A stretch of DNA of 55,380 bases from a virus. Lineage: Duplodnaviria; Caudoviricetes. Location: the IMG/VR virus record IMGVR_UViG_3300037339_000563, positions 1-55,380 of that record; one strand, given 5' to 3'. The notes under the pieces are model-generated. The model saw only the letters and a program-made list of their open reading frames with translations, had not been told where the DNA came from and searched no databases. Positions within the stretch are counted from its first letter, which is position 1, and each line of letters starts with the position of its first letter. Below are positions 34,793 to 52,491 of the stretch, in pieces. The translations under genes were made by a program, and so were the position numbers.

Positions 34793-34821
34793 TTGACTAT
34801 TTGCAGATTTTTGCGTAGAGT
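34793..34821 (+). promoter_or_regulatory. sigma70-like promoter heading the tRNA array
   Basis: TTGACT-17-TAGAGT, 6 nt before tRNA-fMet. Confidence 0.7.
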
Positions 34822-34827
34822 CTTGTC

Positions 34828-34901
34828 TGCGGAATAGAGCAGCCTGGTAGCTCGCAAGGCTCATAACCTTGAGGTCGTAGGTTCAAATCCTTCTTCCGCT
34901 A
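34828..34901 (+). tRNA. tRNA-fMet(CAT)
   Basis: cloverleaf, CAAGG-CTCATAA-CCTTG, unpaired 1:72. Confidence 0.9.
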
Positions 34902-34946
34902 CTAATCGAAGCGACAGTCAGAAACATCCAAGCAAAACGAACGGTC

Positions 34947-35117
34947 ATGTCTTCTTCATCCACCAAAACAACGCAAACCTGCCTCGGTACGAGCAATCGC
35001 TCGTGGCGTCGTGGGTTTATTGCGTTGTGCGTGGAGACCGTCGGCAGCCTGGAAACCACCCCGCGCAGCTATCACCTCCAGGCCAAGGCGAATGATCCCA
35101 GGGGGCTTCTGACATAG
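34947..35117 (+). CDS. putative attenuator leader peptide (56 aa)
   Basis: MSSSSTKTTQTCLGTSNRSWRRGFIALCVETVGSLETTPRSYHLQAKANDPRGLLT; last codons overlap the antiterminator strand; weak RBS. Confidence 0.6.
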   Translation: MSSSSTKTTQTCLGTSNRSWRRGFIALCVETVGSLETTPRSYHLQAKANDPRGLLT

Positions 35118-35180
35118 GTAGACCGAAATACCTAGACCAGAAGCCTCCAAGGAAAAACCCTTGGAGGCTTTCTTCGTTTC
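35101..35180 (+). promoter_or_regulatory. attenuator: antiterminator / intrinsic terminator
   Basis: terminator AAGCCTCCAAGG/CCTTGGAGGCTT + TCTTCGTTTC; GGGGGCTTCTG (35101-11) pairs with CAGAAGCCTCC (35138-48). Confidence 0.72.
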
Positions 35181-35181
35181 T

Positions 35182-35264
35182 GGGAGTGCGGCAACTGGCG
35201 ACGCAAGCTGGCTGTAAACCAGTCGTGTGATGAGCACTTGGAGATTCGACTTCTCCCACTCCCA
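35182..35264 (+). tRNA. tRNA-Tyr(GTA)
   Basis: GCTGG-CTGTAAA-CCAGT, long variable arm. Confidence 0.85.
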
Positions 35265-35331
35265 CTGAAAGTTTTTGCAAAGGACGAAATGACCCGAATC
35301 GCTCAAAAACAGACGCTACTTCCTCCATTTT

Positions 35332-35402
35332 GGGGTTGTAGCTCAATGGCAGAGCATCCGGTTTTTACCCGGTCGACCAGAGTTCGATTCTCTGCAGCCC
35401 TA
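35332..35402 (+). tRNA. tRNA-Lys(TTT)
   Basis: CCGG-TTTTTAC-CCGG. Confidence 0.85.
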
Positions 35403-35423
35403 CGGATACATCAGTGATTTCAT

Positions 35424-35498
35424 TCGGGATTCGTCCAATTGGCAGGACACCAGATTCTGAATCTGTGAACGGAGGTTCGACCCCTCCATCCCGAACCA
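35424..35498 (+). tRNA. tRNA-Gln(CTG)
   Basis: CAGA-TTCTGAA-TCTG, CCA encoded. Confidence 0.9.
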
Positions 35499-35627
35499 AG
35501 CCAAGGCTAAGCGCGACCGGGCATAACTTCCTCTGGAACCCCGGACAACCTTAACCGAAGCCTATGCGACCGACTCCTGATAACCGAATAGTTTTTATAG
35601 ACGCGGGGGCACGCCATGCCCCCATTT

Positions 35628-35700
35628 GCCTCGACAGCTTGCGTGGTGCAAGCGCGGGATTGAAGATCCTGAGATAGTCGTTCGACTCGACTTCGAGGCA
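35628..35700 (+). tRNA. tRNA-Phe(GAA)
   Basis: CGGGA-TTGAAGA-TCCTG. Confidence 0.8.
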
Positions 35701-35760
35701 CCCGTTCGTTTGCCGCGATAGGCATGGCTCATCAGCATGAGAAGTACCTGATGAATTTAT

Positions 35761-35826
35761 GGGACCTATTCGTCCTCAATCATCTTGTCCGGTAACGGAC
35801 CGAAGATGACGGTTATCGTCCCGCCA
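35761..35826 (+). ncRNA. permuted Y-RNA-like module closed by a mini acceptor stem ending CCA
   Basis: GGGAC...TTGTCCG-GTAA-CGGACCGA...GGTTATC-GTCCC-GCCA. Confidence 0.5.
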
Positions 35827-35827
35827 A

Positions 35828-35900
35828 GCCTCCATAGCTCAATGGATAGAGCACTCGGTTCTTACCCGATTTGTTGAAGGTTCGAGTCCTTCTGGGGGCA
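35828..35900 (+). tRNA. tRNA-Lys(CTT)
   Basis: TCGG-TTCTTAC-CCGA. Confidence 0.88.
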
Positions 35901-35935
35901 CTGCAAGTTTCTTCGATTTGTGGCATAACAGGCCA

Positions 35936-36352
35936 ATGTTCAAGGCGATCATCGTCGAATGCCGGTCACTGTGCGAGGCCGCGACGAAGGAACAAAAGAG
36001 AGCTGGACTGGAAGCGTCTTGGAAGCGCGAGAAGGCCAGCAGCACCCCAGAGCGCCTTGCCAAGGTCGGGGACAATCCAGACATAACGACGAAGCGACGG
36101 CTGACTCGACCCATGCCCGATATCACAGATATGAGGGCAAGCCTCAAGAAGAGGATCGACAAAGATCCCCAGGGTACCCATGACAGAGAGGGCTACAAGT
36201 ACCCAGCAGAGCAGAACAGGATCCACAAGTTGCCGTACGCGCAGAAGCGGTTGAGTGACTTTGAGCCACCGAGCAAGCTCCCTGCGGCAACTGCGCTTTC
36301 CAAGAAGAAGCCAGGCCTGATGTCTCGGCTGGCCAGCGTCTTCAAGAAGTAA
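35936..36352 (+). CDS. basic hypothetical protein, possible internal head protein
   Basis: MFKAIIVECR N-terminal motif shared with three other ORFs. Confidence 0.65.
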   Translation: MFKAIIVECRSLCEAATKEQKRAGLEASWKREKASSTPERLAKVGDNPDITTKRRLTRPMPDITDMRASLKKRIDKDPQGTHDREGYKYPAEQNRIHKLPYAQKRLSDFEPPSKLPAATALSKKKPGLMSRLASVFKK

Positions 36353-36436
36353 CCAAAGCTTAGGGTCTGCGCTTCATAAAACCTCGGTGGCAGCACCGAA
36401 GCCTTCAACGGTTTCCCGCAAGGGTTGAGGCGGCAT

Positions 36437-36520
36437 GGAAGACTAACTGCGGATGGCCGCAGCGCCCGTTCGAAGCGGGATGGGACCGAAAGGTCTGGGG
36501 ATCGAGACCTCAGTCTTCCG
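36437..36520 (+). tRNA. tRNA-Ser(CGA), Sec-like long D-stem
   Basis: CCCG-TTCGAAG-CGGG, variable arm, T-loop ATCGAGA. Confidence 0.78.
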
Positions 36521-36591
36521 CGATTTGGTCTTGCTGCACATTGTGTCGACGTGCGATGGCAGATTGGAAAAAAGAGCGCAGAAAACAACTT

Positions 36592-36663
36592 GGTTCATGA
36601 TGCGATAGGTATCGCAGCCTGTCTGTCTAACAGGTGAAAGGGGATCGTTACCCCTATGAACCG
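36592..36663 (+). tRNA. tRNA-Asp(GTC), atypical
   Basis: CCTGT-CTGTCTA-ACAGG, G73, T-loop ATCGTTA. Confidence 0.72.
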
Positions 36664-36667
36664 CTCT

Positions 36668-36738
36668 GGGCGTCTAGTACAACGGGAATACATTCGGCTG
36701 GCAGCCGAATGATCAGGGTTCAACTCCCTGGATGTCCA
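36668..36738 (+). tRNA. tRNA-Ala(GGC)
   Basis: TTCGG-CTGGCAG-CCGAA, G3:U70. Confidence 0.88.
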
Positions 36739-36743
36739 CAAAC

Positions 36744-36812
36744 GGGGAAGCCATCGGGATGGAACACTGCCTTGCACGCAGAGCCTCGTGGGTTCAACTC
36801 CCATCTTCTCCA
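36744..36812 (+). tRNA. tRNA-Ala(TGC), short D-arm
   Basis: CTGC-CTTGCAC-GCAG, G3:U70. Confidence 0.75.
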
Positions 36813-36817
36813 CAAAC

Positions 36818-36888
36818 GGGTCCATCGTATAACGGGCGTATATTCGGATCGCACCCGAAAGATCGGAGTTCAAATCTCCGTGGATCCA
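36818..36888 (+). tRNA. tRNA-Ala(CGC)
   Basis: TTCGG-ATCGCAC-CCGAA, G3:U70. Confidence 0.82.
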
Positions 36889-36937
36889 CAAATGGAAAGC
36901 AAAACGGCTAGGGCGCGAGTCCCGTTAAGACCGCCTT

Positions 36938-37006
36938 GGGCTGGCCTGAAGGCAGGAGCACTCCCTTGCAAGGAGAGCCATTGGGGAGCGTTACCCCTCC
37001 GGTCCA
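36938..37006 (+). tRNA. tRNA-Ala(TGC), atypical D/T loops
   Basis: CTCC-CTTGCAA-GGAG, G3:U70, T-loop AGCGTTA. Confidence 0.65.
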
Positions 37007-37102
37007 CGAACTGATCCGCCAATCCCGTTCCTAGGCATTCTAGAACGCCTAAGCAGGGCACCACTCATCCAACTCTGAATTGGACGTGGGAGGATCAAAC
37101 AC

Positions 37103-37188
37103 GGAAAGTGGTCTAGCTGTGGAGCTAGCGCGGTTTGCTAAACCGATGGAACCCTAACGGGTTTGAGGTTCGACCCCTCCTCTTTCCG
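37103..37188 (+). tRNA. tRNA-Ser(GCT)
   Basis: CGGT-TTGCTAA-ACCG, variable arm. Confidence 0.85.
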
Positions 37189-37228
37189 CCCAGATGCGCG
37201 ATTGATCTGACTGTGCGATCATTCGCCC

Positions 37229-38272
37229 ATGGCGCTGGTAACCATCACGAATCTCACGGGCAATGTGGTCCTCCTCCAGGAGCTATACCGCAACGTGAAA
37301 CCGTACGAGGCGTTCACGATTACCCGCGAAGAAGACCAGCTTCACGCCATGCCCGAATTCCAGAAGTATTGGAACGACGGCGTCATTCAAGTCTCGGTGG
37401 TCAAGGACGCCGCCGAGGACAACTTCATCACCACGTTCCTGCACTCGGTGGGTCCGGCTGCGCTAACTCCTAATCCGCCGCTCAATGTCACGAAGTCAGC
37501 GGCAGCCGTCGGGGTGGAGAGCCTAGCTGCCAGGGGAGACCACAAACACGATGTCTCAACCGCCGGGGCTGTTGAGATTACCGATTCAACAAACGCCGAA
37601 GGAACCGCAACCAGCCTATCCAGGTCTGATCACCAGCACGCCCACGGCAATCGAGCCGGCGGAACCCTTCACTCCGTGGCGACCACTTCTGTGGCTGGGT
37701 TCATGTCCGCTGCGGACAAGACGATCATCAGCGGTTTGCCGACTGTCGTTGCCAACGCCGAGGCAACCAGAACCTATCACGAGTCCATCGTTCGCGCCGA
37801 ATCCGGGGCAAATGCACCAGGCCAACAACCAGACCTAGAGGTCATCAGCGACACGATCGTTGCCGAATTTACGCTCAACACCGACTCCGCCTATCGGCTG
37901 TTCAAGATCCCCGCCTACTACGTCACCGGAGCCGCCTTCCACGCTCACTGGACCAAGGAATCCGGGATCGCAGGGAACGGCAATGAATTAGGCAACTCGG
38001 TCCGATGGAGGGTTAGCTATAAGGTCTGGGCCGGCGAGGGCACGGACATCAATGTGGCGCCTACCGTTGTTGATCTGGATGACACCTACACCGATGGCGG
38101 CTCAACCACGAGAATCACGCAGCGAACCGCCAATGTGGCTGCCCCTGGTTTCATTGCAAATTACTACCTAAGCCTCAAGGTGGAAGCTGTTACCCCGGCG
38201 GGAACGGCGCTAACCTGCGAACCGGCGCTGATCAGCATCGATCTGACCTTCACCGAATACATCAATCAGTAA
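37229..38272 (+). CDS. virion structural protein (tail-fibre-like)
   Basis: ARGDHKH / SRSDHQHAH His motifs, GFMSAADK, beta-rich C-terminus. Confidence 0.65.
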   Translation: MALVTITNLTGNVVLLQELYRNVKPYEAFTITREEDQLHAMPEFQKYWNDGVIQVSVVKDAAEDNFITTFLHSVGPAALTPNPPLNVTKSAAAVGVESLAARGDHKHDVSTAGAVEITDSTNAEGTATSLSRSDHQHAHGNRAGGTLHSVATTSVAGFMSAADKTIISGLPTVVANAEATRTYHESIVRAESGANAPGQQPDLEVISDTIVAEFTLNTDSAYRLFKIPAYYVTGAAFHAHWTKESGIAGNGNELGNSVRWRVSYKVWAGEGTDINVAPTVVDLDDTYTDGGSTTRITQRTANVAAPGFIANYYLSLKVEAVTPAGTALTCEPALISIDLTFTEYINQ

Positions 38273-38274
38273 CC

Positions 38275-38290
38275 GCGCAAGCGCTTGCGC
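38275..38290. repeat. dispersed 16-bp palindrome GCGCAAGCGCTTGCGC
   Basis: exact copies at 38275, 40737, 49968; near copies at 26222, 12044, 11502, 3795. Confidence 0.8.
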
Positions 38291-38379
38291 CGCTCCTCCC
38301 GGCGGGAACTGGAGCCAATAGGAAGAGGAAATGCTTCTGATCGGGGCGCTGGATGCGGGTTCGACTCCCAAGGGCGGCA
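38289..38379 (+). ncRNA. degenerate tRNA-like element
   Basis: GCCGCTC/GGGCGGC-A acceptor stem and GGG-TTCGACT-CCC, no recognisable anticodon arm. Confidence 0.4.
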
Positions 38380-38384
38380 TTTTT

Positions 38385-38459
38385 CTGGGTGTGGTGAAGC
38401 GGTATCACGCGCCGTTCGGGACGGCGAAAACGCAGGTTCGATCCCTGTCACCCAGACCA
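38385..38459 (+). tRNA. tRNA-Pro(CGG)
   Basis: GCCG-TTCGGGA-CGGC, CCA. Confidence 0.9.
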
Positions 38460-38495
38460 TCCGTGAAGACGGAGCGAGATAAAATCTCGTAAATT

Positions 38496-38567
38496 GCGGA
38501 CGAGGTGGCTTGGTGCCACGCCAGCTTGCCAAGCTGGTTCAGGCGGGATCGTTCCCCGTCGTCCGCT
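38496..38567 (+). tRNA. tRNA-Gly(GCC)
   Basis: CCAGC-TTGCCAA-GCTGG, U73, T-loop ATCGTTC. Confidence 0.8.
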
Positions 38568-38593
38568 CGACGGCTTGTCAATTAAGCCATTAT

Positions 38594-38667
38594 GGTGTTC
38601 ATAGTGTAGCGGCTCTGCACGTCTGTTTGTGGAACAGGAAGTTCGGGTTCGACCCCCGATGGACACC
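38594..38667 (+). tRNA. tRNA-His(GTG)
   Basis: G-1:C73, CTGT-TTGTGGA-ACAG. Confidence 0.88.
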
Positions 38668-38771
38668 CAAGAAAATGCACATCTGTCCTCTGGAAATTCT
38701 CGCTGCGCTCTCGGCAATCACTGGAGTTCGATTTGCCTGGGCGTGGTTGAAGTGCAAGCTTGTTACTGTAC

Positions 38772-38844
38772 GCGGATGAGGCCGACTGGTGAGGCAGGTG
38801 CCTTCCAAGCATCTACAGGCTGGGTTCGATTCCCGCCATCCGCT
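38772..38844 (+). tRNA. tRNA-Gly(TCC)
   Basis: GGTGC-CTTCCAA-GCATC. Confidence 0.85.
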
Positions 38845-38852
38845 CCGATATT

Positions 38853-38925
38853 GCCCACGTAGCATAGTGGCGACTGCACCTCTTTCGTAAAGAGGGGATC
38901 GCGAGTTCGAGTCTCGCCGTGGGCT
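38853..38925 (+). tRNA. tRNA-Thr(CGT)
   Basis: CCTCT-TTCGTAA-AGAGG. Confidence 0.9.
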
Positions 38926-39102
38926 CTAGGTCTCGGACGACGGCTCATTGATCGAAGGGATCTCCTTCATCTTCTCCCTTGAGAGCGTCCAGGCGCGCTG
39001 GACCACCCAAGAGAGCGAGCGGTCCAGGCGGGTGGCTTCGGCCTGGACCTCCGCCAGCATGTCTTCTGGGAAGTAGAGGCTCTGCTTTCTCTTGTCGTTC
39101 AT
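38926..39102 (-). CDS. MXAN_4361/MXAN_4362-like (TIGR04563) small RHH protein
   Basis: DKRKQSLYFPEDMLAEVQAEATRLDRSLSWVVQRAW; TATGTT-6-ATG. Confidence 0.85.
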   Translation of the reverse strand: MNDKRKQSLYFPEDMLAEVQAEATRLDRSLSWVVQRAWTLSREKMKEIPSINEPSSET

Positions 39103-39123
39103 GGCAGTAACATACACAATTAT

Positions 39124-39199
39124 TCGGGAATGGTGTAATCGGCAACATCCTCGGCTTTGACCCGAGAGAGTCCAGGTTCGACCCCTGGTTCCCGAACCA
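39124..39199 (+). tRNA. tRNA-Gln(TTG)
   Basis: CTCGG-CTTTGAC-CCGAG, CCA. Confidence 0.9.
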
Positions 39200-39203
39200 A
39201 GCC

Positions 39204-39277
39204 GCCTCCAAAGCATTACGGCGATGCACCGAGCCTGTACCTCGGAGATCTCGGTTCGATCCCGGGTGGAGGCTCCA
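39204..39277 (+). tRNA. tRNA-Thr(TGT), C33
   Basis: CCGAG-CCTGTAC-CTCGG, CCA. Confidence 0.78.
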
Positions 39278-39336
39278 AGCGAACTACTAGGCTGGAACAA
39301 TGCCCGGGAGTGATCGAAAGGTCCGGTTCGCCCTAT

Positions 39337-39409
39337 TCCAGGAAAGGCCATTTGGTGAGCCGCGTAGCTGTTAACTACGTGCTGGCAGGTTCGAACCCTG
39401 CTCCTGGAG
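39337..39409 (+). tRNA. tRNA-Asn(GTT)
   Basis: CGTAG-CTGTTAA-CTACG. Confidence 0.85.
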
Positions 39410-39416
39410 CGACTTT

Positions 39417-39488
39417 GCACTCGTAGCGATTTGGTAATGCGCCGGTCTGTTAAACCGAAAGAATTGGGTTCGATCCCCAACGAGTGCG
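39417..39488 (+). tRNA. tRNA-Asn(GTT), second copy
   Basis: CGGT-CTGTTAA-ACCG. Confidence 0.8.
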
Positions 39489-39564
39489 CGACTTCGTGTC
39501 GACCTGGGCCGGTAACGTCGACTACATGGGTTCAATTCCCGTGATCGCCACGAGTCACTTTTTC

Positions 39565-39633
39565 GAGTGAGCCGAATGAGTCAGGGTTATCAAATTGGTT
39601 GAAACGCCCCTGATTCGACAAAATTGTTCACTC
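39565..39633 (+). ncRNA. Y-RNA-like element 1
   Basis: GAGTGAGCCGA...GGTTATC...TTGTTCACTC. Confidence 0.6.
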
Positions 39634-39637
39634 ATTT

Positions 39638-39713
39638 GACCCTATCCTCCAACTGGCCAGGAGAGCCGATTCTCAGTCGGTCAATCGGGGCTCGAATCCC
39701 CGTAGGGTCGCCA
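39638..39713 (+). tRNA. tRNA-Glu(CTC)
   Basis: GCCGA-TTCTCAG-TCGGT, CCA. Confidence 0.87.
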
Positions 39714-39777
39714 GGTGAGCCGGAGACTGTGGGTTATCACTTGTAATGAACCTCCCACCGTCAACAAATTGTTCACC
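39714..39777 (+). ncRNA. Y-RNA-like element 2
   Basis: GGTGAGCCGG...GGTTATC...TTGTTCACC. Confidence 0.6.
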
Positions 39778-39784
39778 ATCTTTT

Positions 39785-39854
39785 TCTGCGAGCCGTTCGA
39801 ACCTTGGTTATCACATTTAATGATCGCTCCAAGGTTCATCTTCTTGTTCGCGGA
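39785..39854 (+). ncRNA. Y-RNA-like element 3
   Basis: TCTGCGAGCCG...GGTTATC...TTGTTCGCGGA. Confidence 0.6.
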
Positions 39855-39859
39855 TTTTT

Positions 39860-39934
39860 GCACGCATAGCCAAGTGGTAAGGCACTGGTCTGCAAAACCA
39901 GGAGCGACGGGTTCAACTCCCTCTGCGTGCTCCA
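39860..39934 (+). tRNA. tRNA-Cys(GCA)
   Basis: CTGGT-CTGCAAA-ACCAG, U73, CCA. Confidence 0.9.
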
Positions 39935-39950
39935 TTGACAATTGCCTCTT

Positions 39951-40026
39951 GGCCCTATAGTACAGTGGTAAGTATCCTGGTCTTTCACACCAGAGACGCA
40001 GGGTTCAATTCCCTCTAGGGCCACCA
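39951..40026 (+). tRNA. tRNA-Glu(TTC)
   Basis: CTGGT-CTTTCAC-ACCAG, CCA. Confidence 0.87.
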
Positions 40027-40071
40027 TGACCATCCAGACTCCCATCGGAGAGATAGAGGCCTAACGATTTA

Positions 40072-40133
40072 GGTGAGCCGGAGTTCAAGGGTTATCACCA
40101 TAACAATTCCCCTTGGACAACCATTTGTTCACC
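40072..40133 (+). ncRNA. Y-RNA-like element 4
   Basis: GGTGAGCCGG...GGTTATC...TTGTTCACC. Confidence 0.6.
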
Positions 40134-40141
40134 GTTTTTTT

Positions 40142-40204
40142 TAGCGAGCCGAAGTGGTTGGGTTACCATCAAAAACATACCCAGTCACAACTCCTTGTTC
40201 GCTA
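40142..40204 (+). ncRNA. Y-RNA-like element 5
   Basis: TAGCGAGCCGA...GGTTACC...TTGTTCGCTA. Confidence 0.6.
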
Positions 40205-40211
40205 TTTTTTT

Positions 40212-40276
40212 AGATGAGCCGGAGCTATTGGGTTACCTTGAAAATGTAACACCCAGAAGCAACCACTTGTTCATCT
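40212..40276 (+). ncRNA. Y-RNA-like element 6
   Basis: AGATGAGCCGG...GGTTACC...TTGTTCATCT. Confidence 0.6.
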
Positions 40277-40283
40277 GCTTTTT

Positions 40284-40355
40284 GCACGAGTAGTTCAGCG
40301 GAAGAATACTGCGTTGACATCGCAGAGATCGTCGGTTCGATCCCGACCTCGTGTA
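40284..40355 (+). tRNA. tRNA-Val(GAC)
   Basis: CTGCG-TTGACAT-CGCAG. Confidence 0.9.
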
Positions 40356-40360
40356 CTTTT

Positions 40361-40567
40361 GCCCCTGTGGCCAAGTGGTTAAGGCGCTTGATCAAGCATG
40401 CAGCTCATTAGTGCGGCACGAAGAGATCGATCGTCTCTTACGGCTGTACTGACCGGGCGAGTCGTACGGAGGTAGATCGCCTCCAAGTGGTCTGGATTGA
40501 TCATCCAGATTGCTGCACACGATGCATGACGAATTGAGAGACGTCGGTTCAATCCCGACCAGGTGCA
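40361..40567 (+). ncRNA. tRNA scaffold with 140-nt multibranch insert replacing the anticodon loop
   Basis: intact acceptor, D and T arms; CTTGAT/ATTGAG stem encloses nested stems and GAT-loop hairpins. Confidence 0.7.
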
Positions 40568-40577
40568 GGCAATTTCA

Positions 40578-40652
40578 GCCCACGTGGCGCAACGATAGCG
40601 CACTCCGTTGGTATCGGAGAGGTTGCGGGTTTGATTCCCGCCGTGGGCTCCA
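40578..40652 (+). tRNA. tRNA-Thr(GGT)
   Basis: CTCCG-TTGGTAT-CGGAG, CCA. Confidence 0.85.
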
Positions 40653-40931
40653 ATAGAACGCACTCAGGCTGCTCGTCGATGTGGCTGAACGGAGGAGAAA
40701 TTCCGAACAGCATCGAGCACTCCTCACGCGATAACGGCGCAAGCGCTTGCGCTGATCGGACCTAGGGTCCCGCGTACATTGAACATCCGGGGCGGCGGCC
40801 CCTCTTTTCTTCTCGGTTCTTTACCAGACGAGGGTAGATCCCGGAGCCAGCCTTAGTAGTTGGACGGGTCTGGTTGATGAAAGTCAGCGTCCGATAAGCA
40901 CTTCGGCCGTGAAGAATCGAGACCTTTTCCT

Positions 40932-41006
40932 GACTCCATAGCTCAACGGATAGAGTACTCGGCTACGAACCGAGCGATCAAAGTTCAAATCTTTGTGGAG
41001 TCACCA
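40932..41006 (+). tRNA. tRNA-Arg(ACG)
   Basis: CTCGG-CTACGAA-CCGAG, CCA. Confidence 0.92.
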
Positions 41007-41007
41007 T

Positions 41008-41079
41008 GCATCCATCGTCCAGCAGATAGGATAAATCCCTCCGAAGGATTCGACCCAGGTGCAATTCCTGGTGGATGCA
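41008..41079 (+). tRNA. tRNA-Arg(CCG)
   Basis: AATCC-CTCCGAA-GGATT. Confidence 0.82.
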
Positions 41080-46452: not shown

Positions 46453-46454
46453 GG

Positions 46455-46483
46455 TTGACAGCTCGCGCAGGCAGACCTAAGGT
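46455..46483 (+). promoter_or_regulatory. sigma70-like promoter
   Basis: TTGACA-17-TAAGGT. Confidence 0.7.
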
Positions 46484-46539
46484 TGATTCCACGATGACTT
46501 CCCGAGCTTGACACTTCGAGTGCGCCGCAGGCCGCGTGG

Positions 46540-46893
46540 TTGCCTGTAAGTCCAGAGGACGCTCCGGTTCTTGCCGTCGAGCATGTCCTCTACCACTACT
46601 GCATCGGTCGCCTCGATGTTCCCATCGGTGACCTCTGCGCCCAGCTGATTCACGCAGCCGGGGAGAGCAGTCCGGGTAATCTTCCGCCGGAAACCCGTGC
46701 GGTTGCGCTTGGTGCTCGTAGCGAATTCGAGCTGTTGAAGCTCGAACAGAAGCTCAAGAAGAAGAACATTCCACATGTGGCCATCCGAGAACCGGATGAG
46801 CCGTTTTGTGGCCAGCTTATGGCTATCGGCATCGCTCCGTGCGACCGATCTCTAGTCAAGAAGGAGGTGAGTAATTTCCCCCTCCTGAAATGA
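46540..46893 (+). CDS. peptidyl-tRNA hydrolase PTH2-like protein
   Basis: RLD...AQLIHAA, IREPD, AIGIAP, FPLL; start uncertain. Confidence 0.8.
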   Translation: MPVSPEDAPVLAVEHVLYHYCIGRLDVPIGDLCAQLIHAAGESSPGNLPPETRAVALGARSEFELLKLEQKLKKKNIPHVAIREPDEPFCGQLMAIGIAPCDRSLVKKEVSNFPLLK

Positions 46894-46898
46894 CATAT

Positions 46899-46979
46899 GG
46901 ATCGGTAGCTCAACGTAGAGCGCCAGGATCTGATGCAAGTCAGAGCTTGGAGATGGTGGTGCAAGTCCATCCCGATCCG
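46899..46979 (+). ncRNA. anticodon-less tRNA mimic 1
   Basis: anticodon arm extended: TCTGAT-GCAA-GTCAGA. Confidence 0.65.
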
Positions 46980-46984
46980 CGTAC

Positions 46985-47077
46985 GCGGAGGTAACTCAGA
47001 GAGCCCTTTTTATCGGGGGCCAGGAAGAGTACCGAGGGTAACCTTGGGAGTCGGTGGTTCGAGTCCATCCCTCCGCA
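46985..47077 (+). ncRNA. anticodon-less tRNA mimic 2
   Basis: hairpin inserted in D-loop; CCGAGG-GTAA-CCTTGG tetraloop arm. Confidence 0.65.
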
Positions 47078-47081
47078 CTAC

Positions 47082-47170
47082 GCCGGATAGCATAAATCGA
47101 TAAATGCGCCCTACCCGCCCTCGTGGTGGCCATGGGAGATGCTGTGGTTTGATTCCCAGTTCCGGCACCA
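47082..47170 (+). ncRNA. anticodon-less tRNA mimic 3
   Basis: GCCGGA/TCCGGC-ACCA, D arm, extended central arm. Confidence 0.55.
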
Positions 47171-47191
47171 ACCTAAGTTACGATGGGACCC

Positions 47192-47401
47192 ATGAAGTGT
47201 AACTGCGGAGCTGATCGCATGCCTCGAAAAGATCGACCAGGACAGCACTATGCTTACTGCAAGGCCTGCGACAGCAAGCACCGCAAGGAAAGCCCGGGAT
47301 ACCTGACCGTTCTGTCTAAAAATCGCAGCAGAGGCAAGGCAATGCGAGCCAGCAACGACAAGGTGGATCAGGTAATCATGCTGGACACGGAAACGCTTTA
47401 A
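47192..47401 (+). CDS. small Cys-containing protein
   Basis: CNC...YCKAC. Confidence 0.5.
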   Translation: MKCNCGADRMPRKDRPGQHYAYCKACDSKHRKESPGYLTVLSKNRSRGKAMRASNDKVDQVIMLDTETL

Positions 47402-47462
47402 CAAGTCCTTATTCCGGCACCAATTTTGACAATCAAATCACGTAATGAGAAGATTGATTCAT

Positions 47463-47536
47463 GATTGCGTAGCTCAACGGCAGAGCATCCAGGCTTAAGC
47501 AACCGGAGGACGCGGGTTCGACTCCCGTCGCATTCG
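47463..47536 (+). ncRNA. tRNA-like element with distorted anticodon arm
   Basis: canonical D/T arms; TCC-A-GG-CTTAAGCAA-CC-GGA. Confidence 0.55.
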
Positions 47537-47610
47537 CTCACGTAGCCCAACTGGTAGGAGGCACCGATTTCAAAAATCGGACAGTGCGGGTCCGAATCCC
47601 GCCGTGAGCA
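47536..47610 (+). tRNA. tRNA-Leu(CAA), short variable loop
   Basis: CCGAT-TTCAAAA-ATCGG. Confidence 0.82.
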
Positions 47611-47692
47611 CAAAAACCACTGTCAGAAAGCGTACCCCGCCGACGTCTCTGAGTTATGAACTGGCGGGAAACTAATCGAAAGGAGGTAGACC

Positions 47693-48232
47693 GTGTCGAC
47701 TGAAACTCTACGAACTCTTGTGCTCTCTCAGGGATATGAGCCGATAAAGGTCATCTCCTGGCAGAGAGCTATCGCCTTGCTTTCCCTGGGCAAGATTGAA
47801 GTGATCGAGGAATACGATCACAACATTCGCTCCGTCAGCCTTGTCATCAAGGTGCCTGCGGTCGTTCGTCTTCTGACGGCGTTTCGCCGGCACAAGAACA
47901 AGGTCAAGTTCTCCCGCGTCAACATCTTCGCGCGCGATAAGTACTCCTGCCAGTACTGCGGCATGAAGGGCAAGCTATCTGAGCTGACCTACGACCACGT
48001 TCTACCGAGAGCGCAGGGCGGCAAGACCGAGTGGAAGAACATCGCTACGGCGTGCTACGCCTGCAACGAAAAGAAGCGGGACCGTACGCCGGAGCAGGCG
48101 AAGATGCGCCTCCGCTCGAAGCCTGACCAGCCCACCTGGGTGCCCGTCATGGTCGTGCAGGTCAACCAGACGTCAGCTCCTGACGCCTGGCGCGATTATG
48201 TGTACTGGACAGGCGAGCTAGAGGACGAGTGA
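47693..48232 (+). CDS. HNH endonuclease (McrA-like)
   Basis: NIFARDKYSCQYCG, TYDHVLPRAQGG, WKNIATACYACNEKK; AGGAGG RBS. Confidence 0.92.
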   Translation: MSTETLRTLVLSQGYEPIKVISWQRAIALLSLGKIEVIEEYDHNIRSVSLVIKVPAVVRLLTAFRRHKNKVKFSRVNIFARDKYSCQYCGMKGKLSELTYDHVLPRAQGGKTEWKNIATACYACNEKKRDRTPEQAKMRLRSKPDQPTWVPVMVVQVNQTSAPDAWRDYVYWTGELEDE

Positions 48233-48267
48233 AGCGCGCGGCCACGCTTAGTATGGCCGCACATTTT

Positions 48268-48351
48268 GGAAGATGACGTCGCTATGGAGCGGCCACCCGT
48301 TTGAAGCGGGAAGGTGCCTACGGGCATGGGGATCGAGACCTCCTTCTTCCG
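48268..48351 (+). tRNA. tRNA-Ser(TGA), Sec-like long D-stem
   Basis: CCCG-TTTGAAG-CGGG, variable arm. Confidence 0.78.
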
Positions 48352-48393
48352 CGAAACATTGACAATTGCAGGCTCTGGCAGCAACGATATTTC

Positions 48394-48795
48394 ATGTCGT
48401 GCTCCATCAAGCTCAGCGCCAAGCCGCTGCACATCAGCGAAGTAGACTGGGTAAACCAAAAGGTTGCCGAAGCGTGCGGGGTTCCTCTGAAGTTCCTGTA
48501 CCCATCGAGCGACGGCATTCATCCCAGCATCCAGGCCCACCAGATGGATCTGGAAGAGTTCACGAAGGTCCAGCGCGAAAACGACACCATGTCCGTCACC
48601 CACAAGGTCGCCTGTGGAACATGTCATCAGGACGTGGAACGGACGCCGGGCCGGCGAATCAAGTCCATTTCGCAAACGCTGGCCATGTCCGAAGCCTGGT
48701 CACGAGAGCTTCGCGCCAAGGTCAAAGAGTCAGAGCGTCAACGCGAGGCCAAGAAGCCTCAGATCTGCGTTGAGATTGACGACTACTGGGACTAA
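48394..48795 (+). CDS. hypothetical protein
   Basis: start trimmed to MSCSIK to clear the tRNA. Confidence 0.55.
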   Translation: MSCSIKLSAKPLHISEVDWVNQKVAEACGVPLKFLYPSSDGIHPSIQAHQMDLEEFTKVQRENDTMSVTHKVACGTCHQDVERTPGRRIKSISQTLAMSEAWSRELRAKVKESERQREAKKPQICVEIDDYWD

Positions 48796-48820
48796 TCGTT
48801 AGCCAGGGTATACTTAAGGC

Positions 48821-48991
48821 ATGCAGATTCCACTGTGCCCCCACGCAAGGCCAGCTTGGCACTTCTGTCCCAGTTGCCCTCAGGAGAACATTCAGCAACC
48901 ACTGCAGATTGAAGCGCCCTTCTACGAAGAAGAGCGCCCGATGCAGCAGGATGAACCCGCGAAGTCCACGGTCATAGTTATAGAATTCTAA
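48821..48991 (+). CDS. small hypothetical protein (56 aa)
   Basis: MQIPLCPHARPAWHFCPSC...; TATACT-6-ATG. Confidence 0.5.
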   Translation: MQIPLCPHARPAWHFCPSCPQENIQQPLQIEAPFYEEERPMQQDEPAKSTVIVIEF

Positions 48992-49012
48992 CTATGCTAG
49001 GCTCGTCCCACA

Positions 49013-49670
49013 GTGTCGGCAATAGTAGAAATCCGAAGTGGTGAGGGCGGAGATCACTCGAAGCGCCTCGTTCAAGACCAGTTCTCCATTTACGCAAAGA
49101 TGGGGAGCCGGAGGTGTCTTTAGCGTCGAACTTCTGACCGAGCGCCCTGGACTCATCGTCTTCAGGGCATCTGGCAAGGGCGCCGATATAGCGTTTGCCA
49201 ACGAATCGGGTGGACACCGCTGGCAGGAGAAATCCGGTGGAAGAATGCAGACTTCCACGATTACGGTAGCTGTTCTCCCTGAGCCGACGGCCACGCAGGT
49301 CATCGTTCGAGACGACGATCTGGAGTGGAACTTCTGCCGTGGATCTGGCGCCGGAGGGCAGCACCGCAACGTCACCAACAGTGCCGTGCAACTGACTCAT
49401 GTCCCCACCGGAATCTCTGTACGCTGTGAATCTGAGCGCTCTCAGCACAGCAACAAAGAAACCGCCCTGGAGATCTTGCGAGCAAGAATATGGGATGCTG
49501 CAAACGAGCAAAGGTCGTTAGCCCTGTCGTCGTCACGCAGAGAGCAAGTGGGGTCGGGAATGCGGGCAGACAAGCGCCGAACGATCCGATCCCAGGATGG
49601 AGTCGTGACCGATCACGTCCTGAACAAGCAGTGGCAGCTAAAAAAATATCTCCGAGGTGACTGGGATTGA
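49013..49670 (+). CDS. class I peptide release factor homolog expressed via +1 frameshift
   Basis: frame 0 MSAIVEIRSGEGG...RRCL*, slip site GGAGG-TGT-CTT-TAG-C, +1 frame with ESGGHRWQ, TSTITVAVLP, GSGAGGQHRN. Confidence 0.87.
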
Positions 49671-49891
49671 TCTGTACGCAATGCGGATACGAGCACGTCG
49701 ATGTTCACCGGACCGGTGAAGCGATGATCACCTACTGCCAGCAATGTGGTCACACGACGGAAGTGAAAAGAGACCCGCCCAGAAAGAAATGGGCGCATAT
49801 CCGCCATCTCCCCGCCGGTAAGCCGATCAAGGGCGGGGCCATCACCAAGCTCATCCCGCTTCCAGATAAGAAACGTCGTCATGGTAGATGA
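49667..49891 (+). CDS. small Zn-ribbon protein
   Basis: CTQC...CQQC. Confidence 0.55.
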   Translation: MICTQCGYEHVDVHRTGEAMITYCQQCGHTTEVKRDPPRKKWAHIRHLPAGKPIKGGAITKLIPLPDKKRRHGR

Positions 49892-49968
49892 ACAGGCTGT
49901 GGAGCCTGGCCCGCTTGGAAGGCGGTGAGAGCCCGCAAGGGCTTGCGGTTCGACTCCGCCGTCTACCG
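49883..49968 (+). tRNA. tRNA-Ser(GGA)
   Basis: CCGC-TTGGAAG-GCGG, variable arm. Confidence 0.82.
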
Positions 49969-50025
49969 CGCAAGCGCTTGCGCCCATCTAGACAATGTCA
50001 GACCCGTCTGAGATTGTCGTGGGCG

Positions 50026-50514
50026 ATGGATGCGCCAAAAGATGAGAGAACCCTTGAGGAGGCGAAGCAATGGCTTCGCGAGCGATTCGAGCAGGGCGCC
50101 GAGTGCCCATGCTGCAAGCAGTACGTGAAGCTCTACAAGCGCAAGCTGAACAGCTTCATGGCCTACGCACTCCTGCTGATCGACCGCTACTTCCGCCAGC
50201 CAGGCGCGAAGGAGTGGCTCCACGTTCCGAGCTACCTCATCGAGCAGAACGCCACGGACCGCGAATGCGCCAAGCTTCGCTACTGGGGACTGATCGAAGA
50301 AATGCCCGAAGGCCGTGAAGACGGAAGTCCACATGCCGGCTTCTACAAAATTACCGAACATGGCAAGCAGTTCGTTAACCGTCAGATTCGGGTCCCTATG
50401 TACGTCTACCTGTACAATGGCTCCCCGGTTAAACGTCTCGACGCCGAGACCATCGACGTCTACGAGGCCCTCGGCGAGAAATTCAATTATAACGAGCTGC
50501 TCGCTGCTCGCTAA
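50026..50514 (+). CDS. hypothetical wHTH-like protein
   Basis: CPCC, KLRYWGLIE, YKITEHGKQF; start trimmed to MDAPK. Confidence 0.7.
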   Translation: MDAPKDERTLEEAKQWLRERFEQGAECPCCKQYVKLYKRKLNSFMAYALLLIDRYFRQPGAKEWLHVPSYLIEQNATDRECAKLRYWGLIEEMPEGREDGSPHAGFYKITEHGKQFVNRQIRVPMYVYLYNGSPVKRLDAETIDVYEALGEKFNYNELLAAR

Positions 50515-50553
50515 TTTGGTGAAAGATAACCGGGGCCGGACTGTAGTTACCGT

Positions 50554-52341
50554 ATGGCCTTCAAGATGAATCGGAGCACGGACATCGTGGACGGCGAGGT
50601 TGTCGTTCGCGTGGGCGCCGATACGCTCTCTTGCCCCAAGGGGCCAAGTCATCCCATGTACCCGGTCATCGAGCTAATCTGGCCGCTTGATGCGCCAGAG
50701 ATTGGCCCGCGTGGCGGGGTCACGATTCGCTGGCAAGACAAGATGGACTCCACAAAGCCATCCAAGTCCACCGCCCCTAAGTACATCGGCCTCATTGAAC
50801 CCAATGGTAGACAGTGGGTCGGGTACCGCGTCCCAAACCACAACCGCGAATTGTTCGAGTCGCTCCGCAAGAAGTGGGGAATGTGGTTCCTGCGCGTTAA
50901 AAGGCTAGACGACGGCAGGAGTCTGTACTGGACGATGTTCAACGATGGCGGCTATTTCCCTGGCAGCCTGGTGAGCATCATCCAGGAAGCCTCCCCTGAC
51001 GCGAACGCCGCGCAAATGCGTGACGTATTCAGGCAGGCGTGGGACGACGCAGAGCAGAAGTCGAAGATTCGCCCAGACATGCTTCTGGCAAGCGACCTCG
51101 GGCGGCGGCTCTTCGACGCCATATCGAAGATCCCCACCATCCTCGAAGAACTCGGCGGCGGCCCGCTGCCATGGGTTCGCAAGGAGATGCCGTGGTGGGG
51201 CAAGCCAGGCCACGCAGGCCACGAATATGTCGTGAGAATGTACCTTGGGATTCTCAAGAGCGTTCGTCAAAACCTATTGCTGACAACGGACGAGAAGGAC
51301 CTTGTCAGGGAGCGTGCCGAGTACGTCAGGATGTACGAAATGATTCGCAAGGCGCGGATCTTTGAGGTAGCCGCTGAGTCATACACCGAGCTGCATAATC
51401 AGATCGACGACCAGGCAGCCAGAGAGGCCAAGCCCGGCGAAGATGTATCATCGGGCTTAGCCGAAATCAACGAGAGGCTGCCGTTCCCGGACAAGCTGCC
51501 GTTCAGGACCTGCTGGTTTGGGCTAACCGACATAGTAACGATAGAGGACAACGCGGCCAAGGTCCGTGGTCTCAAGGGCGGTCCGTACGTGCTAATCGGA
51601 ATCCTCGTCGACGAATGCGGGGACCACCATGAGGTCTTGCTCAACAACGAGGCCGAGCGATACGGAGACACCTTTGCTCTCCACGCAGAAATCGTAACCC
51701 ATCGCATCGAGGAACGCGACGAATGGCTATATCAGTGGTGCCTCGCACCGCTGATTCTCCACGCCCTCGTCGACGGCATCAACGAACACCAGACGACCAT
51801 CGTTACCCAGCGCAAGGTCGGCTTCCAGAGTCAGGGCAAAATCAAGAAGGGACTCGAAGACCTTGGAATCAAGCGTCCGATTCCTCCGCCATTCTATACG
51901 GTATACCTGAAGGATCAGCTCATCCATGAAATGGTCGGCCCTCGCGGCCCCGGCAGGCTCCGCGCGAAGTACGGCCATCGGTTCGACGTGCGCGGGCACT
52001 GGAGCTACAAGGTTCACCGTGGCCAGATGCCAATCGACCCCGAGTACGAGCTGCATCTTCAGAAGCTGAAATACACCATCTTCAAAGACGGACCGCTCGA
52101 TGAGAATACCATAGCGGCGTTCGCCGAACGCGAGCTTCCACCGCGCGAGAACGGCGAGTGGATCGCCGTTAAGAAGTTCTGGAAAGAGTCCTACGTCAAG
52201 GGCCCGGAAACCGGCCCCTACATTCCCTCGACCAGGCGCGCGACAAAGGGCATCTTAGCGTTTGACAACAAGGAGCCGGTCTACGAAGATGATCACTCCT
52301 ATGAGCACGCGAAGACGCCAGCCGGTTCCAAAGTCGCTTAG
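50554..52341 (+). CDS. hypothetical phage protein
   Basis: 595 aa; C-terminal VRGHW...WKESYVKGP motif. Confidence 0.78.
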   Translation: MAFKMNRSTDIVDGEVVVRVGADTLSCPKGPSHPMYPVIELIWPLDAPEIGPRGGVTIRWQDKMDSTKPSKSTAPKYIGLIEPNGRQWVGYRVPNHNRELFESLRKKWGMWFLRVKRLDDGRSLYWTMFNDGGYFPGSLVSIIQEASPDANAAQMRDVFRQAWDDAEQKSKIRPDMLLASDLGRRLFDAISKIPTILEELGGGPLPWVRKEMPWWGKPGHAGHEYVVRMYLGILKSVRQNLLLTTDEKDLVRERAEYVRMYEMIRKARIFEVAAESYTELHNQIDDQAAREAKPGEDVSSGLAEINERLPFPDKLPFRTCWFGLTDIVTIEDNAAKVRGLKGGPYVLIGILVDECGDHHEVLLNNEAERYGDTFALHAEIVTHRIEERDEWLYQWCLAPLILHALVDGINEHQTTIVTQRKVGFQSQGKIKKGLEDLGIKRPIPPPFYTVYLKDQLIHEMVGPRGPGRLRAKYGHRFDVRGHWSYKVHRGQMPIDPEYELHLQKLKYTIFKDGPLDENTIAAFAERELPPRENGEWIAVKKFWKESYVKGPETGPYIPSTRRATKGILAFDNKEPVYEDDHSYEHAKTPAGSKVA

Positions 52342-52414
52342 GCGTCCGTAGCTCAGTGGATAGAGCAGCTGATTTCTAATCAGCTGGTCGCAGGTTCGAG
52401 TCCTGCCGGATGCG
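52342..52414 (+). tRNA. tRNA-Arg(TCT)
   Basis: GCTGA-TTTCTAA-TCAGC. Confidence 0.93.
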
Positions 52415-52418
52415 CTTC

Positions 52419-52491
52419 GGCCCCGTAGTTCAGTGGATAGAATAGCGCTTTCCTAAAGCGAAGGTCGCACGTTCGAGCCGTGCCGGGGTCA
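52419..52491 (+). tRNA. tRNA-Arg(CCT)
   Basis: CGCT-TTCCTAA-AGCG. Confidence 0.92.

Follow-up and report, generated by a model that had tools for sequence, protein, structure and literature searches.

Positions 34793 to 52491 of the virus record IMGVR_UViG_3300037339_000563 (55,380 bases, all of which were analysed and are called the window below) hold a dense block of tRNA genes and small structured RNAs, together with genes for a release factor, a PTH2-family protein and an HNH endonuclease. The locus raises the question of whether these parts belong to one integrated, self-sensing translation-rescue module, as a preliminary description of this DNA had proposed, or have come together independently of one another. 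Comparison with relatives pointed to the second answer: on balance, the block is probably a mosaic zone in a large, uncultured sediment phage, where independent genes for the support of translation accumulated co-directionally, and no single circuit.

The window is the whole of the IMG/VR record, which is rated 38% complete and has a GC content of about 55%. The minus strand of window 1-34,000 encodes the large subunit of a terminase, a UvsX-like recombinase, a primase and a DnaB-like helicase; because of these genes, in what is a virus record, the source was taken to be a phage. The coding strand flips at about 34.7 kb, and 34793-52562 is entirely plus strand. Near-identity searching of 50,697 deposited phage records found no near relative; 11 records matched, over tRNA-sized pieces only. 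Comparisons were made with four first relatives (G001 to G004), whose release factors were 55-97% identical to that of the window, and with a larger set from a release-factor scan, in which 315 viral stretches encoded a relative and the best 80 (81 loci with the window included) were examined.

Gain and loss of the parts among relatives

The relative G001, rated 100% complete and colinear with the window, lacks window segments 34890-38905, 39102-40706, 40955-42001, 42350-44365 and 45510-48798. It consequently has 8 tRNAs, no PTH2 gene and, in the colinear stretch compared, no HNH gene, while the release factor, 97% identical to that of the window, has been kept. The entire layout of the block, HNH gene included, was retained in G002. 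In the other two relatives parts were found far apart on the contig: the release factor of G003 lies about 185 kb from an array of 45 tRNAs, and that of G004 about 50 kb from a PTH2-like gene. Altogether, the four relatives had 8, 47, 45 and 1 tRNAs, and a PTH2 gene was present in two of them.

A similar picture was obtained from the 80 release-factor loci, which were counted with 10-kb flanks and include several near-duplicate pairs. Within 10 kb of the release factor, at least one tRNA was found in 43 loci, at least ten in 30 and none in 37; a PTH2-family gene was present in 10 loci, eight of which also had at least five tRNAs, and an HNH homologue in 11. In this co-occurrence comparison, which the preliminary description had itself called for, the release factor was often, and the other parts only occasionally, found together with the rest. 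Separate gain and loss of the parts in relatives points to a gene-accretion zone and not to an operon-like circuit, and the proposed integrated, self-sensing module does not survive it. The broader theme of translation upkeep does fit the parts; the single wired circuit was not borne out.

A release factor gene in two frames

The strongest result concerns the release factor gene, which was read in two overlapping frames. The second frame (49038-49670, 210 residues) matched PF00472 with 103 bits, and its GGQ motif was visible in alignment to structures of release factor 1 (RF1). The first frame (49013-49120) has a GTG start and 36 codons, encodes the start of release-factor domain 2 and lies at -1 relative to the second. 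At the junction (49118-49124) the sequence is CTT TAG C, with GGAGG located 3 nucleotides (nt) 5' of the CTT and the remainder of the factor in the +1 frame. When CTT-T was read as one step, a product of 218 residues resulted, whose alignment to the prfA profile was unbroken over positions 114-340 of 361. This product scored 194 bits against prfA, 116 against prfB and 83 against prfH, the second frame alone reaching 173 against prfA. The prfA score is below the equivalog cut-off of 423, the alignment beginning only at profile position 114, and the prfH score, over positions 4-197 of a 200-position profile, is below the cut-off of 167. With an unbroken prfA match from position 114, and prfA giving the best score, the factor was assigned as closest to RF1 and lacking domain 1. 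In alignment to RF1 chains of known structure, the window's factor has a gap of 4 residues where the tripeptide that reads the stop codon would lie (PxT in RF1; its position was taken from the alignment). The reading-loop motifs of the relatives were PPT, PPN or PKT, mostly the RF1-like PPT or PPN, and no link was seen across family members between loop type and the stop codon at the shift site.

The cassette was present in the window and in all four first relatives, and the two-frame layout in 72 of the 81 loci, which collapse to 66 distinct sequence contexts. In these contexts the stop at the shift site was TGA in 49, TAG in 13 and TAA in 4, and the base following it was C in 48 and in the window. 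A Shine-Dalgarno-like element was found in 57 of the 66, with a spacer of 3 nt in 52 of the 57. Arginine codons at this site were strongly biased, CGG being used in 51 of 58 cases at -3 (15% of Arg codons elsewhere in the same genes) and AGG in 40 of 42 at -2 (12.5% elsewhere), so that it is the choice of Arg codon that builds the Shine-Dalgarno-like element. Both frames appeared to be under purifying selection: the ratio of non-synonymous to synonymous substitution rates (dN/dS) of the second was 0.10-0.14, and for the first, compared with G002, pS was 0.68 and pN 0.11. Of 120 database homologues, 2 were naturally in frame. The frameshift control of the release factor that the preliminary description had put forward is thereby upheld in its cis-elements and their conservation, in the form of a prfB-type cassette; the +1 shift and any feedback through it are predicted.

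Among release-factor genes, programmed frameshifting is a textbook case that is not known beyond prfB. In a 2025 survey of 12,753 bacterial genomes none was seen in prfA, and TAG was never detected at the prfB frameshift site (PMC12421855). The phage site resembles that of prfB (RF2), as described there, in the stop after CTT, the slippery CTT-T, the Shine-Dalgarno-like element 3 nt upstream, the prevalence of C after the stop and the continuation of the factor in the +1 frame. It differs in that the window product is closer to RF1 than to RF2, in its position after codon 36-37 (the start of domain 2, at about position 150 of the prfA profile) and not in the N-terminal region, in the use of TGA, TAG or TAA, and in being carried by a phage. 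A further likeness is to PrfH (RFH), a rescue release factor that is paired with RtcB, for which a role in ribosome conflicts has been proposed (PMC6514570) and to which the phage factor aligned nearly throughout, domain 1 being absent. Unlike PrfH, the phage factor scored under the prfH cut-off and closer to RF1, and RtcB was absent from all five records searched for it. A full-text literature search, with term look-ups in PMC6514570 and PMC12421855, returned no report of a frameshift in a phage release factor; the supplement of PMC12421855, where split prfA genes may be listed, lay outside that search.

By analogy with prfB (PMC12421855), the cassette could plausibly serve the gene as an internal measure of how efficiently termination proceeds. 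Simple self-regulation of the prfB kind is doubtful, since most shift sites carry TGA and most members an RF1-type loop, and the site may instead report the termination capacity of the host and not the level of the factor itself.

Small RNAs and other features of the block

About 17 non-canonical tRNA- or Y-like RNAs had been claimed for the block, of which 14 were supported: six 68-nt repeats, three tRNA-like chimeras with an insert of about 55 nt, and five others (46985-47078, a tRNA-like gene read 'taag', 41868-41939, 46899-46979 and a 279-nt RNA at the head of the block). A fifteenth candidate, 38272-38379 as a tRNA-like gene, was rejected, as it folded no better than its shuffles (z +1.06). 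Coordinates of all features are collected in Table 1.

Five of the 68-nt copies were obtained by covariance-model search and the sixth (40136-40208) from the seed alignment and its fold; every copy ends in a T run. A pattern scan of the viral collection gave 17 stretches, on as many contigs, that of G002 included. The model was then searched against 18 sources, namely 16 of these stretches together with the window and the stretch from G002; 16 of the sources had matches, 27 in all. In the resulting alignment of 26 distinct sequences from 16 records, which was fitted to the model and so favours pairing, 97.1% of cells were paired, compared with 76.5% in shuffles and 38-47% in slid controls, and compensatory double changes occupied 83 cells, compared with 22 in shuffles. 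In the element the 5' and 3' ends pair into a stem, supported by covariation, that encloses a conserved internal loop. Against the Rfam stem-bulge RNA family RF01656, whose members are C. elegans stem-bulge RNAs, homologues in nematodes of Y RNAs (PMC8477234, PMC4726728), the units scored 25.5-29.7 bits and had four motif blocks in common. Y RNAs carry a Ro60-site motif, GNCGAA-N(0-1)-G, near the 5' end (PMC4201824); it was found in exact form (GCCGAAG or GCCGAATG) in two of the six window copies and in the chimera at 43291, the remaining copies having GCCGGAG or GCCGTTCG at that position. A copy lay flush between two tRNAs in four contigs (L013, L014, L026 and L027). On a 5.7-kb viral fragment (L018), a permuted tmRNA was called by ARAGORN on the minus strand (234-544), overlapping a match to the 68-nt pattern on the plus strand (301-365).

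In the three chimeras the motifs of the 68-nt element are circularly permuted and stand in place of, or beside, the anticodon arm. In the inserts of the first two a tetraloop closes the outer helix, and the region that these two span (42343-42609) was 83% conserved in G002. Matches to the YrlA model in the block were discarded as a tandem-tRNA artefact, of the kind warned of in PMC4201824.

Genes with a TROVE domain, the mark of Ro60, were encoded in 12 of the 16 other contigs with the 68-nt RNA, and in 8 of the 9 of those at least 90% complete; in contigs chosen by their release factor, the figures were 10 of 50 overall and 4 of 15 at that completeness. For the complete contigs, the enrichment corresponded to a one-sided P of about 0.005 (hypergeometric, our own arithmetic). 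Both RNA and TROVE gene were present in G002 and neither in G001. The 68-nt model detected no copy in 76 loci searched up to 10 kb from the release factor, and none in the array of G003 or the PTH2-bearing stretches L006 and L007. The TROVE gene of the distant relative G003 lies inside its 45-tRNA array (L012 2974-4740, minus strand) and encodes 588 residues with TROVE and Ro60 vWA domains. To have called these RNAs Y-like from the letters alone was perceptive, in view of the motif blocks in common with RF01656 and the TROVE genes on the contigs that carry them. The accompanying label of decoys fits less well, and with that co-occurrence the RNAs are better read as Ro60 partners, to which Ro60 would bind.

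Ro60 with Y-RNA-like RNAs is known from mycobacteriophages, CcrColossus, Bacillus phage G and Thermus phage phiLo (PMC4201824, PMC12135203); the supplementary lists of PMC4201824, which may hold related phage RNAs, lay outside the comparison. The 68-nt RNAs resemble phage and bacterial Y RNAs in their end-formed stem, conserved internal loop, CGAA-type motif and occurrence in Ro60-encoding phages, and the tRNA-like bodies of the chimeras recall the tRNA mimicry of YrlA (PMC4201824, PMC12135203). They differ in being much shorter (about 68 nt), multi-copy and located inside tRNA arrays far from Ro60, in being nearest in Rfam to nematode stem-bulge RNAs and in not matching the YrlA model; moreover, the chimeras bear the module where a tRNA has its anticodon, and their free ends lie at the acceptor stem. 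This miniature, multi-copy, array-embedded RNA is a variant of the known pairing of phage Ro60 with Y-like RNAs.

Table 1. Features of the block and of its borders, in window coordinates
Feature	Position	Strand	Basis or remark
Sigma-70-like promoter match (TTGACT, 17 nt, TAGAGT)	34793-34821	+	6 nt 5' of first tRNA
tRNA-Met(cat)	34828-34902	+	ARAGORN; Rfam 61.1 bits
279-nt structured RNA	34903-35181	+	minimum free energy -114.7 kcal/mol
tRNA-Tyr(gta)	35182-35265	+	relaxed ARAGORN
tRNAs Lys(ttt), Gln(ctg), Phe(gaa), Lys(ctt)	35332-35403, 35424-35498, 35627-35703, 35828-35901	+	ARAGORN; Rfam
tRNAs Ser(cga), Ser(gct)	36437-36521, 37103-37190	+	relaxed ARAGORN
tRNAs Asp(gtc), Ala(ggc), Ala(tgc), Ala(cgc)	36592-36664, 36668-36739, 36744-36813, 36818-36889	+	ARAGORN
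Open reading frame (ORF), 347 residues	37229-38272	+	no family
9 tRNAs: Pro(cgg), Gly(gcc), His(gtg), Gly(tcc), Thr(cgt), Gln(ttg), Thr(tgt), Asn(gtt) twice	38385-39489	+	ARAGORN
68-nt Y-RNA-like element (model R1), six copies	39559-39637, 39707-39782, 39783-39857, 40065-40138, 40136-40208, 40206-40280	+	
tRNAs Glu(ctc), Cys(gca), Glu(ttc)	39638-39713, 39860-39934, 39951-40026	+	interleaved with 68-nt elements
tRNAs Val(gac), Thr(ggt), Arg(acg), Arg(ccg), Trp(cca) (41090-41160, relaxed run), Ile(tat)	40284-41236	+	ARAGORN
Aberrant tRNA-like	41868-41939	+	Rfam; inspection
tRNA-Met(cat)	42001-42074	+	ARAGORN
Two tRNA-likes with insert of about 55 nt	42343-42470, 42481-42609	+	repeat family D11; Rfam; relaxed ARAGORN; fold
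ORF, 142 residues	42698-43126	+	weak ParB-like or Cro-like hints
tRNAs Pro(tgg), Ile(gat)	within 43131-43421	+	ARAGORN
Third tRNA-like chimera	43291-43421	+	fold
ORF, 277 residues	43633-44466	+	no family
tRNAs Val(tac), Leu(taa), Leu(tag), Leu(gag)	44500-45561	+	ARAGORN; small ORFs between
DUF7768 protein	45701-46141	+	PHROG family name nucleoside 2-deoxyribosyltransferase
S24-like ORF (weak)	46144-46452	+	
PTH2-family protein, divergent, 117 residues	46540-46893	+	Pfam PF01981 28.1 bits (cut-off 23)
Two tRNA-likes without usable anticodon loop	46899-46979, 46985-47078	+	Rfam; fold; inspection
'taag' tRNA-like, expanded anticodon loop	47463-47537	+	ARAGORN
tRNA-Leu(caa)	47536-47611	+	ARAGORN; 2-nt overlap with 'taag' tRNA-like
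HNH endonuclease, free-standing, 179 residues	47693-48232	+	Pfam HNH_5 and HNH; phrog_16726
Release factor in two frames	49013-49670	+	RF-1 domain; GGQ; domain 1 absent
tRNA-Ser(gga)	49883-49969	+	ARAGORN
phrog_2693 ORF	within 49888-50514	+	
ORF, 595 residues	50554-52341	+	no family
tRNAs Arg(tct), Arg(cct)	52342-52492	+	ARAGORN; Rfam
Terminator-like hairpin, 13 pairs, T-rich tail	52530-52562	+	38 nt past last tRNA

The tRNA complement agreed with the earlier count of about 44 for all 20 amino acids. ARAGORN at default settings called 38 genes, all on the plus strand (34828-52492), one of which has the expanded anticodon loop read 'taag'; a relaxed run added Tyr(gta), Ser(cga), Ser(gct) and Trp(cca), and Rfam at gathering score added the tRNA-likes at 41868 and 46899. 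The total of 44 is made up of 41 standard genes (37 default and 4 relaxed, for 20 amino acids, the coverage of Tyr and Trp depending on relaxed calls) and 3 aberrant ones. On inspection, the tRNA-like at 41868 had a CAT anticodon and lacked the T-loop consensus, and in that at 46899 a long GCAA-capped hairpin replaced the anticodon arm. The 'taag' gene (L003 7482-7559 in the relative compared) had the same loop sequence in G002, where its acceptor stem carried paired changes, and this tRNA could be a natural quadruplet or frameshift-prone decoder. A link between it and the CTT-T shift site was dropped, since by our reasoning standard pairing would read another quadruplet. Elsewhere, the array of a 293-kb phage contig that also has the 68-nt RNA and Ro60 contained a tRNA with a CTA anticodon (L026 1597-1670; amber suppressor type, labelled Pyl by ARAGORN).

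Two repeats were noted among the tRNA genes. An element of 26 nt with a perfect GC-rich palindrome as core (repeat family D19) occurs at 38270-38295, 40732-40757 and 49963-49988, one copy lying at the stop of the 347-residue ORF and one at the end of a tRNA-Ser, and may be a site where protein binds or termination takes place. The other, a direct repeat of 59 nt with 81% identity between its copies (36465-36523 and 48296-48354; family D13), consists of the 3' half of tRNA-Ser(cga) and of a copy at the start of a 164-residue ORF upstream of the release factor, and looks like a tRNA fragment left by recombination.

Arrays of dozens of tRNAs for all amino acids together with a PTH2 of archaeo-eukaryotic type are known from jumbo phages (PMC7824862), and 56 tRNAs have been described in phage XacN1 (PMC5852040). 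To this layout the window adds the frameshifted release factor and the Y-like RNAs, and its PTH2 belongs to a divergent subfamily. For this 117-residue ORF 278 homologues were found, some named peptidyl-tRNA hydrolase by their sources, and a profile built from 22 of them matched Pth2 structures only (5 of 5, best E 9e-5), profile positions 11-111 aligning to Pth2 residues 3-115, a full-length similarity. The score against the NCBIfam equivalog was 16.9, below its cut-off of 126. Canonical Pth2 has a lysine after a conserved glycine, a column that was not conserved in the window's subfamily. The earlier identification as a PTH2-like hydrolase can thus be kept for a divergent family member whose activity is predicted, and that of an HNH nuclease was confirmed by its Pfam and PHROG matches. 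As a free-standing endonuclease in a tRNA cluster, variable among relatives, the latter resembles T4 SegB (PMC2330249, PMC13096335); unlike SegB, which is of the GIY-YIG type, it is of the HNH family, and it would act in homing. The 595-residue ORF was considered as a hidden Ro60 and rejected, as it had no similarity to the Ro60 of G003 and no Pfam match even at E<=1.

At the head of the block, the 279-nt RNA folded with a z of -7.0, and none of 200 shuffles folded equally well. Its 3' end forms a 13-pair terminator-like hairpin (35140-35171), part of which (35138-35148) can alternatively pair with an upstream arm (35104-35114). The head region (34780-35290) was 93% identical to G002, compared with about 76% in the flanks, and none of 64 pairs covaried in the two near-identical sequences available. 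No Rfam match was obtained for the head RNA at E<=1, and among the four relatives it was absent from G001, G003 and G004, G002 being the sole carrier. A leader-peptide attenuator was rejected: the 56-codon frame at 34947-35117 had no Shine-Dalgarno sequence and no coding signature, substitutions being spread 5/3/4 over codon positions and 6 of 7 changed codons altering the residue. Of the attenuator once placed here, the terminator-like and the competing hairpins are present and a leader frame with a coding signature is not; the element is a conserved structured RNA, for which a regulatory role is possible. The promoter-like match 5' of it was kept in G002. Neither kind of signal was enriched in the region, with 3 promoter-like sites seen (8.1 expected) and 22 terminator-like sites (16.7 expected). 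Beyond tRNA-clan and chance matches, no riboswitch, T-box, tmRNA or ribozyme family was matched by Rfam in 34000-53000 at E<=1.

RNA-library contigs from four metatranscriptome runs of one sediment study matched parts of the block with zero to few differences, reaching the head RNA (34849-35157, 0-1 differences), the 5' portion of the PTH2 gene and some portions of the release factor gene. Strand, ends and level could not be read from them and the uncovered parts are uninformative; they hint only weakly at expression of the block, since DNA carry-over is possible and the contigs come without strand or ends. Just 3' of the block (52700-54923) lie three consecutive paralogous ORFs of about 230-250 residues with a common N-terminal motif and layout. 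In 40 chosen ORFs of the window the stop codons were TGA in 18, TAG in 13 and TAA in 9, a share of TAG that appears high for a genome with the standard code.

Explanations for the block and their meaning

Read as a mosaic translation-support zone, the block would act through separate contributions. With the 41 standard tRNAs the phage would be self-sufficient in decoders for the 20 amino acids, and its protein synthesis could go on even if the tRNAs of the host were degraded, under attack or poorly matched. Release factor would be made solely when the ribosome shifts +1 on CTT-T at the in-frame stop, aided by GGAGG, and, as for prfB, slow termination at that stop would yield more factor, so that its level would track the termination capacity of the cell. 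Having lost the loop that reads the stop, and with GGQ maintained by purifying selection, the window's factor may release peptides without reading a stop codon. The PTH2-family protein would, by its family membership, recover tRNAs from peptidyl-tRNA that has dropped off. The 68-nt RNAs, six in number, and the three chimeras would be Y-RNA-like partners, in RNA surveillance, of a phage Ro60 encoded elsewhere, and the HNH gene, as a selfish homing endonuclease, would contribute to the shuffling of the region.

Several observations weigh against parts of this interpretation. The proximity of release factor and tRNAs (43 of 80 loci) appears to be far above what would be expected of a random gene, and some functional linkage is therefore conceivable; the head RNA, with its competing hairpins, could be a genuine regulator. 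The 68-nt RNAs stay below the gathering score of RF01656 (at most 29.7 against 38) and match neither the YrlA nor the Y_RNA model of Rfam. No Ro60 (TROVE) gene was found in the 55-kb window, which at 38% completeness leaves about 60% of the genome missing. In G002 the Ro60 gene lies more than 120 kb from the RNAs, as against the 4-kb rule for bacterial Y RNAs given in PMC4201824; G003 has Ro60 without a 68-nt copy, and one contig 97% complete has the RNA without Ro60. Membership in PTH2 is suggested by modest scores, and the +1 shift, the RNA ends and any regulation are predictions from sequence.

A single counter-defence circuit, in which attenuator and frameshift sense failure and answer tRNA-targeting host nucleases with tRNAs, decoys and rescue factors, would account for a single strand on which all parts are enclosed by a promoter-like site at the head and a strong terminator-like hairpin at the end, for the mutually exclusive hairpins of the head RNA, for a frameshift cassette that is real, and for the clustering of release factor with tRNAs and of PTH2 with at least five tRNAs (8 of 10 loci). 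Phage tRNAs are reported to defeat PARIS and retron effectors (PMC11464382, PMC11555353), and the core idea, phage tRNAs and PTH2 as ribosome rescue against anticodon nucleases, has been published previously (PMC7824862, section 3.4.9). We nevertheless consider such a circuit decidedly unlikely, given that its components are gained and lost independently of one another, that the head RNA occurs in one of four relatives and its 56-codon frame has neither Shine-Dalgarno sequence nor coding pattern, that the frameshift can control only the release factor itself, that the supposed decoys co-occur with Ro60, and that no feature specific to anticodon nucleases was seen, with no RNA ligase and RtcB in none of five records. 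Less elaborate, and still unlikely, is a cassette that only supplies codons, its tRNAs matching codon usage or widening host range and its protein genes and odd RNAs being passengers or in decay. Mosaic gain and loss, numerous small ORFs without a family, several tRNA-likes without a usable anticodon and a homing endonuclease comparable to SegB in the T4 tRNA cluster (PMC2330249) would all agree with it; the selection on the release factor and its elaborate cassette in 72 of 81 loci, the covariation of the 68-nt RNAs across 26 distinct sequences from 16 records, the expanded-loop tRNA that keeps its loop while its stems co-vary and, in our judgement, a 20-amino-acid set beyond the usual needs of codon-bias tuning all speak against it.

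Two narrower alternatives concern single components. The 68-nt repeats might be processing or termination punctuation of a long tRNA transcript, or repeats at the DNA level, and not Ro60 partners, as the terminal T runs, the copies flush between tRNAs in four contigs, the Rfam scores under cut-off and a window without a Ro60 gene would allow; TROVE genes in 12 of 16 contigs as opposed to 10 of 50 comparison contigs, motifs in common with stem-bulge RNAs down to the Ro60 site, and the grafting of the same module into tRNA-like bodies, as in tRNA-mimicking Y RNAs, make this very unlikely. That the split release factor gene is a pseudogene or an assembly error, as its two frames, deleted stop-reading loop and absent domain 1 might suggest, is scarcely credible and is already contradicted by an identical break with its flanking signals in 72 of 81 loci from separate assemblies, by the low dN/dS of the second frame and the excess of synonymous changes in the first, and by a codon choice that constructs the Shine-Dalgarno-like element.

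For the mosaic zone, the negative result itself matters, as a single self-sensing island fails the comparison with relatives. Two components deserve study of their own: the family of RF1-closest, frameshift-gated factors, and the miniature Y-like RNAs with their tRNA chimeras. Tentatively, and with more doubt than confidence, a further reading can be offered in which widespread short RF1-closest factors, behind a prfB-like gate at a new position and with any stop, would serve as a gauge of host termination and not as self-regulators, the phage turning to a factor of its own only if RF1 or RF2 of the host fails at the shift-site codon; loop-deleted forms would carry out stop-independent rescue, and the miniature Y RNAs and tRNA/Y chimeras of the arrays would recruit phage Ro60 to tRNA-shaped targets. 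With the 68-nt family, the range of phage Y RNAs is widened to miniature RNAs that occur in several copies within tRNA arrays. An RF1-closest cassette at a different site and with three stops provides a natural series on what such a cassette measures, and the family lets one ask what part is played during infection by a release factor that lacks domain 1 and, in some members, the reading loop.

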